A DNA stretch of 63,959 nt, filler included, from Malassezia furfur (taxonomy: Eukaryota), in NCBI GenBank assembly GCA_052055015.1. It is 3 parts of 3 records of this genome, joined end to end, with 100 filler letters (N's around TTAATTAATTAA, not from the genome) between each part and the next. Parts side by side here need not be neighbours in the genome. Positions count along the whole stretch, not along the records: positions 1 to 25,481 come from JBQJIT010000136.1; positions 25,582 to 50,474 come from JBQJIT010000137.1; positions 50,575 to 63,959 come from JBQJIT010000319.1. One strand, given 5' to 3'. Under the pieces are notes generated by a model, which did no database searches, was not told where the DNA came from, and saw nothing but the letters and a program-made list of their open reading frames with translations. The number at the start of each line of letters is the position of its first letter. The stretch's first letter is position 1. This document shows positions 14,376 to 63,183 of the stretch, piece by piece. Made by a program: the position numbers and the translations under genes.

Positions 14376-15005
14376 TCACGGCTTGCTTGGCTTCCAAAAG
14401 CCAAACGATTGGAAGGGCAAAGCCAACAGTAGACACATAAACCCGAAGAAGATCTTGATCATTCCGATGATTTGCCGGGCGTACGGGACAAAGATGGCAA
14501 ACACTTCCTGAATCGAGTACAGGTCGACCTGCCGCTTGATATAGTACTTGTCATCCTTGCCCTTGACGAGATCGAGCTTCACGACGATGCTGAGAAGGTC
14601 AGAACAAAGCATGCACGTACTTGACCGAGGGCGACCAGATGCGGCGGATCCAGGCGAGGTTGCAGCGAAGCGTTTGGGTCACGTTGACGAACAGCACGTT
14701 CTTCTCCGCATCGAGACCTGCATGTTAGCGCCTCCGTAAGCGTACCAATATCGTGCACTTCAATCAAAGTATCCATAAACATGACACGCAGCCATTGGTA
14801 AATGGGGAGCACGCCCGTGTCGCGCGACTGCGTCTGTGAGCGGATGTAGACTTACGTTCTCGTACGACATCACCGCACACATAGGGTGGTCGAAGGATGC
14901 GTCAGACACGAAGTAGCGCTGCATCGTGTCGCGCTGCTCGTCTGCATTCTTGGCCGAGCAGAGACCTTTCACAACGCCCGCGATTTCCTTGCGAGGGTTC
15001 TCCAT
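14376..15005 (-). CDS. Conserved fungal NTF2/SnoaL-like fold protein with hydrophobic C-terminus; introns 14828-14855, 14718-14745, 14590-14620
   Basis: MENPRKEI..QRYFVSDASFDHP..SRDTGVLPIYQW..YYIKRQVDLY reads continuously after removing three GT-AG introns (28, 28, 31 nt). Fold call is inference. Confidence 0.7.
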
Positions 15006-15297
15006 GATGTCAAGGTACAAGGGACTAGCGGTGACAAACGCCGCGCACGGTCGATAGTGCCGCTGCCCGATGCGGTTCCGCGCCCGGGCCTTCCAGGGCC
15101 AACTTTTTCTTATCAGGCACGTGCTCTGACATATCACCGCGCAGGCCGGCAATTTCCTCGACTTCAACGAACCGGGAGATAGACCAATGGAATTATGCAC
15201 AATGCGGAGGAACATAGGTGGGGGAACTGGCGCAAAACTTAGCTAGAAGCTCGATTACTACGAACTTCCCCGTTACGGCACGGCAGTACGTGTCCGG

Positions 15298-17223
15298 ATG
15301 AGCGTCGGGTATCGACTAGCCCCTAGCGCAAGCAAGTCTGTGCGTTCATTTCCGAAGCATAAATCGTTTGTTGCTCAAACCATGCGTTCGTTTTCCATGA
15401 CGAAGCCTTCTGGTGAAGAGCCGAAACAACTCTATTCGGGGCAGGCATCGTTGCCTTTGCTTCCTGTGCCCCCGCTTGAGGAGACGCTGCAAAAGTACTT
15501 CCGCACGACGATCCCCTTGCACAAGGATGGTTCGTCGCTCGCGCGCACGGAGAAGGCTGTCCAGGACGCGATCAGTGGGAAAGATAGCGCCTTGGTCAAG
15601 AAGCTGCAGGACCGCCTGGTTCACCGGGCGACGGCCGAGGGCCGTGAGAGCTGGCTGTACGACTGGTGGCTCTCTGGCGGCTACATGCAGCCGCGCGACC
15701 CGCTGGTGCCGTTTGTGAGCTATTTCTACTTGCACCGCGCCGACCCCAAGGTGAACAACTACGTTACGCGTAGTGCGCACATCCTCAAGGGTATGATGGC
15801 TTTCCGCACGATGGTGGTCAACGAGACACTCGCTCCTGAAAAGACCAAGACCGGATACATGTGTATGCATGGATTCAAGTACCTCTTCAACTCGTGCCGC
15901 ATTCCGCAGCCGGAAGAGGATGTGACGGTCACCTTTGAACCCGCGAAGAACAACCACGTGGTGATTGTGCGCAACGGTCACTTCTACGAGCTGCCGCTGG
16001 TCAACCCCACGACGAACAAGGAACTTAGCGTGCCGGAGATCGAGATCCAGCTCGACCGCATTGTCGGCGATGCCCGCAGCCAGCAGCCGCCCAAGGCGCC
16101 GATTGGTGCGCTGACGTCGAACAAGCGTGACAAGTGGGCCGAGGCGCGCAAGGCGCTTATTTCGGGCCCCAACGGCGAGCAAAACGAAAAGGCACTGGAG
16201 CGCATCGAGAGCTCGATCGCTGTCCTGTGCCTTGACGACGTGAAGCCCATCTCGCTCGAGGAGCGCGGCTGGGCTGTCTGGACCGGCGAGGGCATCAACC
16301 GTTTCTACGACAAGCAGCAGTTCATCGTTGCAGCGAATGGCACCTCTGGTTTCGTGGGTGAGCACTCCATGCTGGACGGCACGCAGACCATGCGTCTGAA
16401 CAACTTTGTGCTGAGTGCGCTCGAGCAGGGCAAGATTGACCTCGAGGGCCCCAACTCGGGTGCTGTGCTGGATGAGCCTACCCTTCTCGAGTTTTCGGTC
16501 GATGCCACGACCCAAAAGAACGTGGATGAGTCGCGGAAGAGTTTTGCTGAGCTGATGGCCGCACACGCCATGTCCTCGCTGGACTTCCAGGGCTACGGTA
16601 AGAACCAGATCAAGAAGTACAAGTGCTCGCCGGATGCCTGGGCTCAGATGGCCATCCAGCTCGCCTTCTTCCGCCTCTACAACCGTCCTGCGGCTACGTA
16701 CGAGGCGGCGCAGACCCGCAAGTTCAAGCTGGGCCGTACTGAGACCATCCGTACGCTTAGCGTGGAAAGCAAGGCGTTTGTGGAGGCGATGACCAACCCG
16801 GATGTGTCTGACCAGGAGCGCCTCAAGCTATTCCAGGCGGCCGCCGCGCAGCACATCAAGTACGCCAAGGAGGCTGCGGACGCCCACGGTGTGGACCGTC
16901 ACATGCTTGGCCTCAAGAAGCTCCTGCAACCCAACGAGGAGATGCCGGACGTGTTCAAGGACCCCATGCATGCGGAGAGCGGCACCTGGATCTTGAGCAC
17001 GTCGCAGATCTCCACGGACGTGTTTGACGGCTGGGGCTTCGGCGAGGTGACGCCTAAGGGCTATGGCTGTGCGTACGCGATCAAGGAGAACTCGCTCTCG
17101 TTCACGCTGGTTTGTCTCAAGCAGGAGCACCAGCCCGTGCGTTTCACCGAGTACCTGAACCGTGCGCTGCTCGACATCCGTGCCATGCACGACCGCGCCC
17201 TGGGTGCGAAGAGCAAGCTGTAG
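15298..17223 (+). CDS. CAT2: Carnitine O-acetyltransferase (mitochondrial/peroxisomal)
   Basis: LPLLPVPPLEETLQKY, NRFYDK, GEHSMLDG, SPDAWAQMAIQLA, TYEAAQTRKFKLGRTETIR; ends in -SKL. Confidence 0.93.
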   Translation: MSVGYRLAPSASKSVRSFPKHKSFVAQTMRSFSMTKPSGEEPKQLYSGQASLPLLPVPPLEETLQKYFRTTIPLHKDGSSLARTEKAVQDAISGKDSALVKKLQDRLVHRATAEGRESWLYDWWLSGGYMQPRDPLVPFVSYFYLHRADPKVNNYVTRSAHILKGMMAFRTMVVNETLAPEKTKTGYMCMHGFKYLFNSCRIPQPEEDVTVTFEPAKNNHVVIVRNGHFYELPLVNPTTNKELSVPEIEIQLDRIVGDARSQQPPKAPIGALTSNKRDKWAEARKALISGPNGEQNEKALERIESSIAVLCLDDVKPISLEERGWAVWTGEGINRFYDKQQFIVAANGTSGFVGEHSMLDGTQTMRLNNFVLSALEQGKIDLEGPNSGAVLDEPTLLEFSVDATTQKNVDESRKSFAELMAAHAMSSLDFQGYGKNQIKKYKCSPDAWAQMAIQLAFFRLYNRPAATYEAAQTRKFKLGRTETIRTLSVESKAFVEAMTNPDVSDQERLKLFQAAAAQHIKYAKEAADAHGVDRHMLGLKKLLQPNEEMPDVFKDPMHAESGTWILSTSQISTDVFDGWGFGEVTPKGYGCAYAIKENSLSFTLVCLKQEHQPVRFTEYLNRALLDIRAMHDRALGAKSKL

Positions 17224-61102: not shown

Positions 61103-61114
61103 CCCTCCACTTGG

Positions 61115-63183
61115 ATGTCGGACGTCGAGGTGGTGGAAGTGCAGTATGCGGACGAGCTGGACCCCGCAGCACATGCGCGCCTCGCTGCAATCGATGCCGA
61201 GGTCGAGCAGATTGCGCATCAGGTTCATGAGCTGACGCGTATCAAGCGCGAGCTTCTCGACGAGCGCCGAGCGATCCTCGCCGAGCAGCGCGCGGCGCAG
61301 CGCGACGCCGTCGAGCACACGACCGACTATACTGCCACATTTCCGTGGTCGACCGAGCTGCTGCGGCGTGCACGCACCGTGTTTGGCATCGAGGCATTTC
61401 GTACCGGCCAGGAGTGCGTGTGCAACGCTGCCATGGATGGCCGCGACGTGGTGGTTGTTATGCCGACGGGTGCTGGGAAGTCGCTATGCCACCAGCTGCC
61501 AGCGCTCCTGAGCGACGCGGTGACGCTGGTCATCTCGCCACTCATTGCACTTATGCATGACCAGGTCGTGAATCTGCGTGCGCGTGGCGTGCCGTGCGCG
61601 CTCCTGTCGAGCACCACGACCAAAGAGGAGGCCAGTGCGGTGCTGCATGCGGTGCGCAACGACGTCGACGCACCCAAACTACTCTACGTCACGCCCGAGC
61701 GCGTTGCCAAGTCAAAGACACTGCTGGCCGCGCTGCAGTCTGCGTATGAGCAGGGCCGGCTGGGCCGCCTCGTCGTCGACGAAGCGCACTGCTGCAGTAC
61801 CCTGGGGCACGACTACCGCCCGGACTACAATAAGCTGTCGATCTGCCGGCGCCTCTTCCCGCGAACACCCATTATGGCGCTCACTGCAACGCTGGGACGG
61901 CAGGCATTGCACGACGTCCTGCAGATCCTCGGTTTGCGGCCCACGACGCCGCCCGAGTCGGCCGTGGCGCGGCGCACCGTCTACTTCCGTGCGCCGCTGC
62001 ACCGCGCCAACCTGCGGTATGCGGTTGTGACGCGCCCCGCCAATGCCCTGGCGGCGCACCAGGCGATGTGTACGTACATTGAACAGCACCATGCAAACGA
62101 GTCCGGCATCGTGTACTGTCTGAGCCGCAAGGATACTCATACGGTCGCCGACGCGCTGCGGCGCCTAAGCGACGGCCGGATTCGGACGGGCGTGTACCAT
62201 GCCGACGTTGACGAGGCGGACAAGCAGCGTGTACACGCTGACTGGCGCACAGGCCGCGTGACGGTCGTGTGTGCGACGATTGCCTTTGGTATGGGCATCG
62301 ACAAGGGCGATGTGCGATTTGTGCTGCACGCGTGTCTGTCCAAGTCGCTGGACGGCTACTACCAGGAGACGGGGCGCGCAGGGTATGTGGCTCACTCACC
62401 ACAGCCGCGACGGCCACGAGGCTCATTGCGTCCTGTTCTACCGCGCGCCCGACGCCGCGCGCGTCAGTTCCCTGACCGCCGGCGAGGTTGGTGGGCAGGC
62501 CAAACGTACGTGGATTGCTTACTCGAGTGCATGCCATGCTGGACTACGCCCAATCGGCCGTGTGCCGCAAGCAGCTCTTTGCACAGTACTTTGAGGAGCC
62601 CAAGGCAGAGGCGTGCGGCGTGTGTGACAACTGCGTGCACGCCGACGTGCGGCGCCCCGTCGACGTGTCGTTTGCCGCGTGGAAGGTGGTGATGGCCGCG
62701 CGCGACATTGACAAGCACGGCGGCCGGTGCACGCTGAGTGCGCTGGCGGATGTGTGCCGGGGCATTGGTGGCGCACAGTACAAGGTGGCGGATGACGCCG
62801 GGCGCCCGTCGAGCGCGACGGCGCGCATCGACCTCGCGGCACTCGGCGGCAAGGTGGAGCTGTCGCGCGAGAATGCCGAGCGGCTGCTGGTGCAGATGCT
62901 GCTGGCCGGCTACCTCACCGAGTCCTTCCATGCGACGGCGTACACGGTCAACGTGTACCTGGCGCCCGGGCGGCTTGCCGGAAAGCTCGCGCAGTATGCG
63001 CTACGCGATGCACAGCATCTGCAAGGCACCGTGCGCCTTGTGCTGCACGACGCGACGATGGACGTGGCGCACGCCGAAGCGGCTCCGCGCCCCGCGCCGA
63101 AGCGTGCAGGCACGCGTGCGCCGGCGGGTGCCAAACGCGCGCGGCGGAGCACCCAGGAAGACGGAGTGATTCACGTCGAGTAA
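61115..63183 (+). CDS. RecQ-family DNA helicase (RECQ1-like); introns 62383-62404, 62506-62527
   Basis: MPTGAGKSLC, YVTPE, DEAHCCS..GHDYRPDY, ALTAT, ATIAFGMGIDK, YYQETGRAG|RDG, Zn-binding CRK..CGVCDNC. Confidence 0.92.

Follow-up and report, generated by a model that had tools for sequence, protein, structure and literature searches.

The window analysed here is a stretch of 63,959 nucleotides (nt) of Malassezia furfur DNA (assembly GCA_052055015.1), made of pieces from three contigs with runs of N between them (positions 25482–25581 and 50475–50574); since these are separate contigs, gene order across the joins is meaningless. Its genes are interrupted by very short introns, and an initial annotation had listed ten of exactly 22 nt, stating that none is shorter and that 22 nt is an apparent hard floor. 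The ten segments were confirmed as exactly 22 nt long with GT..AG ends (10/10); seven lie on the plus strand, while those at 21668, 55504 and 56113 lie on the minus strand. They are listed below, where available with the length in amino acids (aa) of the open reading frame (ORF) when the intron is spliced or kept, and with the corresponding intron in the second genomic copy (homeolog).

17680–17701, plus strand: 22-nt first intron of an alpha/beta hydrolase gene (Hydrolase_4, Pfam); ORF 413 aa spliced vs. 291 aa kept; 22/22 nt in the homeolog.
21668–21689, minus strand: 22-nt intron of a putative short-chain dehydrogenase-like gene, TTAAC branch; 22/22 nt in the homeolog.
33670–33691, plus strand: 22-nt intron of a putative acyltransferase-like gene, predicted branch A at nt 16; 377 vs. 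299 aa; 22/22 nt in the homeolog.
38162–38183, plus strand: 22-nt intron preceding the last ARL8 exon; homeolog, translation and solved-structure match.
41016–41037, plus strand: 22-nt intron of a GNAT acetyltransferase gene; Pfam match; spliced product to the stop equally long in both subgenomes.
51730–51751, plus strand: 22-nt intron of a WD40 gene; 655 vs. 380 aa; Pfam WD40.
55504–55525, minus strand: 22-nt intron of a six-intron GH16-like gene; 397 vs. 318 aa.
56113–56134, minus strand: 22-nt intron 1 of the GH16-like gene; 397 vs. 270 aa.
62383–62404, plus strand: 22-nt intron interrupting motif VI of the RecQ helicase, with the branch A predicted at nt 16; 679 vs. 490 aa.
62506–62527, plus strand: 22-nt intron of RecQ, CTTAC branch (A at nt 16), GAG acceptor; 679 vs. 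490 aa.

The genome assembly comprises 13.68 Mb in 1856 contigs. Most regions tested are present as two copies, 82–89% identical (two subgenomes), and one window protein shares 85–87% identity with proteins of M. brasiliensis and M. furfur. This fits a Malassezia furfur-like genome with two subgenomes, compatible with an M. furfur-group hybrid; hybrids within this group exist. A counterpart of 22 nt was found in the other subgenome for five of the ten introns (17680, 21668, 33670, 38162 and 41016), with diverged spacers, while the homeolog search returned none for window positions 50575–63959 (the last 13 kb). Splicing out the ten introns yields coherent proteins of good length. The longest frame shrinks upon intron retention in 8 of the 9 window 22-mers tested by ORF length; the one at 21668 was checked by translation and homeolog instead. 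As the initial annotation had it, splicing rejoins the RecQ, GH16 and GNAT junction motifs in the translated products, and the last exon of ARL8 aligns to residues 150–180 of human ARL8A, the preceding exon aligning up to residue 147. In RecQ, the Pfam match to Helicase_C stops at the exon end before the 62383 intron (profile position 106 of 110), and the match to RecQ_Zn_bind begins in the exon after 62506–62527. Pfam supports the labels RecQ, GNAT, hydrolase and WD40, and solved structures support that of ARL8; the short-chain dehydrogenase-like and acyltransferase-like labels are our judgement from the sequence, and GH16 is taken from the initial annotation, Pfam searches with two single exons of that gene having given no match. 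Retention of the GNAT intron extends the frame into the next gene (41016–41560, plus strand) in this subgenome only, probably by chance, because the homeolog carries stops there.

Candidate introns were collected by motif; genome-wide, one strict motif, GTAYGT-N(spacer)-CTRAC-V-CAG, was used with its reversed form as control. In the window, a strict motif scan returned eight candidates of 22 nt, whereas 20 Markov simulations averaged 0.05, and scans for introns of any length gave 29 (strict) to 45 (relaxed, nested duplicates included), the initial annotation having counted about 48. Searches of the window with Rfam and ARAGORN gave no matches. Since the candidates were picked by motif, the conservation of their signals is partly built in.

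The same scan returned no candidate of 21 nt or less in the window, as a floor at 22 nt would have it. Nevertheless, an intron of 21 nt is present, contrary to the claim that none is shorter; being in frame and stop-free, it is easily missed. It is given here with an intron of the same gene and with one of the hydrolase gene.

60429–60449, minus strand: 21-nt intron, in frame and stop-free; GTACGT donor, CTCAC branch whose A is nt 16, leaving a 3′ arm of 5 nt.
60827–60849, minus strand: 23-nt intron upstream in the same gene; strict scan and translation.
18538–18561, plus strand: 24-nt intron of the Hydrolase_4 gene of 17680; the homeolog (contig C2) has an intron of 21 nt.

The seven residues that 60429–60449 would encode are absent from the annotated orthologs WFC95189.1 of M. 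brasiliensis and WFD01623.1 of M. obtusa, while the M. furfur models WFD47640.1 and KAI3628507.1 keep them.

Across the whole genome, the motif with spacers of 4 to 6 nt (19–21 nt in total) has 342 matches vs. 2 for the reversed control, and 98 of the first 100 matches listed are exactly 21 nt long. The step is abrupt: 4 matches have a spacer of 4–5 nt and about 338 a spacer of 6 nt, while a spacer of 7 nt (22 nt in total) gives 274 matches vs. 0 in the control. Spacers of 0–5 nt give 22 matches vs. 19 in the control, most of them nested in longer introns or coding sequence and a few ambiguous. We also examined a 752-kb genome sample, partly picked for containing 21-mers, of which 435 kb were not so picked. 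At lengths of 20 to 26 nt, the whole sample holds 3, 76, 68, 51, 35, 40 and 24 candidates (controls 1, 0, 0, 0, 1, 4 and 2), and the 435 kb hold 1, 20, 42, 21, 16, 30 and 15. The floor is firm; the mode may be 21 or 22 nt. The median of the motif-picked candidates is 24 nt, 84% of 413 candidates do not exceed 30 nt, and a tail extends past 40 nt. Extrapolating from the sample density of about 550 candidates per Mb, we infer thousands of introns of 21–30 nt genome-wide. A looser pattern for lengths below 22 nt gave 126 matches vs. 43 in the control; we did not count this excess in favour of introns of 15–19 nt, most of the first 10 inspected being the 3′ part of 21–24-nt introns.

The initial annotation had named many introns below 22 nt genome-wide as the observation that would speak against its floor, and about 338 motif matches at 21 nt vs. 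274 at 22 nt, plus a small 20-nt class, were found. A floor at 22 nt agrees with the 21:22 ratio of the window (1:10), which departs from that of the genome (p = 0.002), and with the 435 kb, where 22 outnumbers 21 by 42 to 20. Against it stand the genome-wide 21-nt matches (2 in the control) together with the 21-mer of the window, the in-frame stop carried by 16 of 64 frame-consistent 21-mers, and homology gaps of exactly seven residues. It is almost certainly wrong, and the sequence data place the floor at 21 nt, rarely 20. The pile-up at 22 nt in the window is local, intron length being correlated between neighbours (rho 0.54 for 114 pairs; 0.42 for 88 pairs from whole contigs), and stop-free 21-mers leave frames unbroken, which makes them easy to overlook. 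The correlation is also seen within genes, where 21-mers cluster, e.g., seven within C5:76.5–79.9 kb. Their location is not explained by GC content at codon positions (p = 0.81), local GC being slightly higher (p = 0.003). A floor of 21 nt in one subgenome and 22 nt in the other was ruled out by 6 pairs of 21/21 and 8 pairs of 22/22.

That these segments are introns is supported by reading frame and homology. Splicing restores the frame in 47 of 52 confident 22-mers (2 of the 52 fit unspliced) and in 36 of 44 23-mers. In the MO25 gene (contig C5), two 21-mers correspond to two exact seven-residue gaps vs. the zebrafish and human structures; among 150 homologs, 124 span site 1 and 140 span site 2, of which 111 and 107, respectively, show a net gap of seven. 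Further 21-mers interrupt homeodomain, SNF2, HIT and RING domains; neither the homeodomain nor the first segment of SNF2 matched any PDB entry at the thresholds set, and the second SNF2 alignment starts past the insert and is hence uninformative. Over 130 kb of alignment, 88 homeolog pairs are 93% identical in the donor and 91% in the branch, both figures being inflated by pair selection, and 66% identical in the spacer, a figure unaffected by it; their flanks are 90% identical. Gaps between homeologs, likewise unaffected, occur in 21 of 88 introns vs. 1 of 176 flanks, and of 19 differences in length, 15 are not divisible by three. We also ruled out that the 21-mers favour the phase in which their branch motif reads as a stop (phases 29/14/21).

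Alternatively, the wall could be soft, i.e., stop-free 21-mers would be poorly spliced or retained, adding seven residues, and efficient splicing would begin at 22–23 nt. We keep this alternative mainly because 21-mers lack stop enrichment: introns of 24–30 nt whose length is a multiple of three (3n) carry in-frame stops in 24 of 43 cases vs. 26 of 115 non-3n introns (p = 1e-4), whereas 21-mers do so in 16 of 64 (p = 0.002 vs. 24–30 nt). In the 752-kb sample, 3n introns of 24–30 nt are scarce and stop-rich, a signature of decay surveillance which the 21-mers do not show; this could mean either reliable splicing or tolerated retention. The second MO25 21-mer is kept as a similar seven-residue insert in public models of M. 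furfur, M. brasiliensis and M. yamatoensis, which suggests that its 21-nt length is common to the three species; moreover, Cryptococcus introns below 40 nt splice poorly according to the available part of bioRxiv 10.1101/2024.12.05.626984. On the other hand, the donor and branch motifs of the 21-mers are as strong as those of longer introns, the 21-mers interrupt conserved cores (homeodomain, SNF2, HIT, RING and MO25), and the M. furfur model WFD45446.1 removes both MO25 21-mers. Altogether, we regard a soft wall as improbable. Inserts at 21-nt intron sites (60429–60449; L049:463–483 and 544–564) are kept in WFD47640.1, KAI3628507.1, KAI3628233.1, WFC93438.1 and WFC98751.1, and the seven-residue inserts in public Malassezia models are likely a systematic annotation error. 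The MO25 gene also contains a probable 22-nt GC-AG intron (L049:881–902, G000 C5), one of a few GC-AG candidates in the donor profile.

The architecture of the shortest introns points to where the limit lies. In the 76 sampled 21-mers, the donor occupies nt 1–6, the spacer nt 7–12 and the branch pentamer nt 13–17 (A at 16), followed by one free base and YAG. The donor is GTAYGT in 69 of 76 21-mers and 59 of 68 22-mers, partly by construction of the scan, and the consensus layout has no polypyrimidine tract. The layout given in the initial annotation needs a slight correction: the pentamer is usually followed by 2 nt and AG rather than by 3–6 nt and AG, and the minimum spacer is 6 nt. When CTNAC motifs were simply counted after 1008 GTAYGT sites, with no intron model, their A fell at nt 13 to 18 in 5, 2, 3, 81, 67 and 36 cases (reversed control 2, 1, 1, 4, 1 and 0), and CTNAC is strongly enriched at nt 16–20 after donors as compared to controls. 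The 3′ arm, from the branch A to the intron end, measures 5 nt in 264 of 418 candidates and rarely 4 or 3. Most likely, then, the sharp minimum is one of spacing between 5′ splice site and branch, the predicted branch A almost never preceding nt 16.

Since most introns share a 3′ arm of 5 nt, total length and 5′ arm are confounded, and a ruler could instead measure about 21 nt end to end. Three candidates with long 3′ arms, whose branch A is best placed at nt 15, would agree with such a ruler. Yet 3′ arms of 6 nt begin at A16 and none earlier, those longer than that show no general shift, and 20-nt introns arise by trimming of the 3′ arm with A16 kept, so that we consider an end-to-end ruler quite unlikely. 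Still less probable, in our opinion, is a wall with no machine limit behind it, made of the summed length of the signals including one hidden in the spacer. The spacer of the 21-mers does lean to G/C at nt 7–8 (G in 48 of 76 at nt 7) and to purine at nt 12; however, the visible signals add up to about 15 nt, and the spacer is 66% identical, with no dominant base at nt 9–11, yet bounded in length. A minimum 5′ arm thus remains the preferred explanation.

The few introns below 21 nt were examined with a pattern having a 3′ arm of 4 nt. Of its 13 matches (vs. 5 in the control), one has a shorter spacer, while the other 12 measure exactly 20 nt and, by pattern, place the A at nt 16. Removal of one 20-nt intron (G000 C53:15122–15141, i.e., L132:5122–5141) is required for an in-frame RRM in a PPIL4 homolog: Pfam positions 1–33 lie before the intron and 35–54 after it, in a different frame. 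A pyrimidine directly precedes the branch A in 12 of 12 20-nt matches (11 C, 1 T), which include near-identical pairs and represent about nine independent loci, vs. 22 of 76 21-mers. PPIL4 is a spliceosome-associated protein in human structures. The homolog (L132:4760–5121, G000 C53) starts about 100 residues before the RRM, the cyclophilin domain being seemingly absent, and a divergent gene apparently lies just upstream.

As to their class, the introns were compared with U2-type features. All ten listed introns have GT..AG ends, a donor hexamer of the GTRNGT type and a U2-pairable branch motif are present, and removal restores the reading frame and a conserved protein. The U2 small nuclear RNA encodes the canonical branch-pairing sequence and U6 carries the ACAGAGA box; two copies of U6 score above the Rfam cut-off (L136, G000 C243:13877–13981; L103, G000 C27:12840–13032). 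Compared with human U6, the loop of the internal stem-loop is slightly longer, and the diverged 3′ part looks complementary to the U2 5′ end. The U12-type consensus consists of an RTATCCTT donor and a TCCTTAAC branch; U12-type introns were ruled out, the donors being GTAYGT and the branches CTNAC. A uniform tiny-intron genome of the Stentor or Mikrocytos type was likewise rejected, given the lengths at 21–26 nt (76, 68, 51, 35, 40 and 24) and the tail beyond 40 nt. We therefore think it probable, judging from their sequences, that these are canonical U2-type spliceosomal introns pressed against a wall of two parts.

Several points weigh against this interpretation. Picking candidates by motif leaves weak-signal introns, possibly shorter ones, invisible, and both splicing and branch use are predicted here from the DNA sequence. 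Three quarters of the frame-consistent 21-mers (48/64) are stop-free, and four public models keep such inserts. Among candidates with 3′ arms of at least 7 nt, six have their best branch A at nt 12–15, five with an alternative motif at nt 16 or beyond and one without. A search for U1 with RF00003 gave no match, 41 of 173 candidates having been scored in a fragmented assembly. Two elements below 20 nt are identical in both subgenomes, an 18-mer, which reads as coding, and a 17-mer in a 5′ untranslated region. The latter is a perfect donor-branch-acceptor string (G000 C2:48843–48859 and C63:14898–14914; L003, L070), and the region belongs to a gene which we take, from its sequence, to be secreted-protease-like; it could be either the end of a longer intron, a chance occurrence or a genuine exception to the floor. 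Finally, 16 nt is not a universal limit, because Stentor and Mikrocytos splice shorter introns.

How such a wall might arise can be outlined from the known architecture of the splicing machinery. In the activated spliceosome, U6 and U2 simultaneously hold the 5′ end of the intron and its branch region, respectively, as described in the available part of PMC9505925. In the shortest introns, nt 1–6 would be held in the active site and by the U6 ACAGAGA box and nt 11–17 would be paired to U2, so that nt 7–10 alone would link the two helices. Deletion pressure in a compact genome would trim spacers down to a lariat loop of 16 nt, and introns with shorter loops would fail splicing and be purged; the limit may act at early donor/branch recognition or at activation. 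On this model, we lean slightly towards a wall that is physical (steric). The steric limit proposed by the initial annotation retains its sharp lower wall, not its position at 22 nt, and may be restated as a limit on the distance from 5′ splice site to branch. By analogy with other organisms, the 16-nt loop wall is lineage-specific rather than universal. It is conceivable, though doubtful, that the Malassezia spliceosome has been remodelled for a 16-nt loop with canonical U2/U6 pairing kept, that its two arms are tied to the chemistry of the branch helix, the 3′ arm shortening from 5 to 4 nt only with a pyrimidine mismatching U2 before the branch A, and that hundreds of frame-neutral 21-mers are hidden in proteomes. 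If so, a single-nucleotide geometric splicing rule would be readable in a culturable, transformable fungus.

Introns of 15–16 nt are found in Stentor. Stentor coeruleus and Mikrocytos mackini combine canonical U2/U6 pairing elements with a tiny lariat loop; in Stentor the loop measures about 10 nt (available text of PMC9505925), as compared to 16 nt here, and Mikrocytos has introns of 16–17 nt (217/224 at 16 bp in the part of PMC10245619 available), while here a wall is followed by a tail past 40 nt. In both systems lengths are nearly uniform. The present introns carry the complete donor and branch motifs of fungi, and a possible steric clash is as much an issue there as here. Paramecium introns (about 25 bp; PMC5014332, in part) share the length range and an enrichment of 3n introns with stops, which here is confined to 24–30 nt, and myxobolid introns (median 22–27 bp; PMC13644364, in part) share the range with reduced splice motifs, which here are strong. 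Cryptococcus neoformans, a basidiomycete with U2-type introns, averages 56 nt (bioRxiv 10.1101/2024.12.05.626984, in part), compared with 84% at or below 30 nt here.

Within the same genus and class, M. sympodialis and M. restricta already have known short mean intron lengths; here the floor is resolved into two arms. According to the available parts of these papers, curated introns of M. sympodialis have a mean length of 30 bp and RNA-seq support of 99% (PMC5389616, Table 2), and those of M. restricta have a mean/median of 37.2/30 (PMC9241646, Table 1) and were annotated with minimum intron lengths of 20 and 15 (PMC6473144). Figure S8 of PMC5389616, a cumulative intron-length plot, may already show the floor, and no intron minimum is stated in the accessible portions of PMC8476143 or PMC3560662. 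In the literature searched, which left out most subscription papers, we found no account of a 21-nt floor or of the A16/+5 geometry; the two-arm geometry, the pyrimidine rule of 20-nt introns and the annotation errors thus appear undescribed, while the intron class and its shortness in the genus are known. This is not a new kind of splicing, protists having shorter introns. Still, one survey placed the physical limit of intron length at 30 bp (PMC4675715, in the part available), and assembly on introns far below the spliceosome footprint is still unknown according to the accessible text of bioRxiv 10.1101/2024.12.05.626984. T-DNA mutagenesis and CRISPR are reported for this yeast (bioRxiv 10.1101/638429). 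Because this is a genetically tractable yeast with a wall that is sharp to one base, the limit is testable by a simple length series, and Malassezia is a handy laboratory organism for minimal intron size. Moreover, retained 21-nt introns distort the annotation of a skin commensal and opportunist.

A metagenome scan for further Malassezia loci returned distant fungi only, at 41–48% identity. Two additional segments of the window deserve mention. At 14834–14855 (minus strand) lies a possible eleventh 22-nt intron with a GTAAGT donor and a 3′ arm of 3 nt; it is conserved in the other subgenome, and use of a second acceptor lying 6 nt downstream would give 28 nt. At 54444–54464 (plus strand) there is a weak in-frame 21-nt GC-AG candidate.

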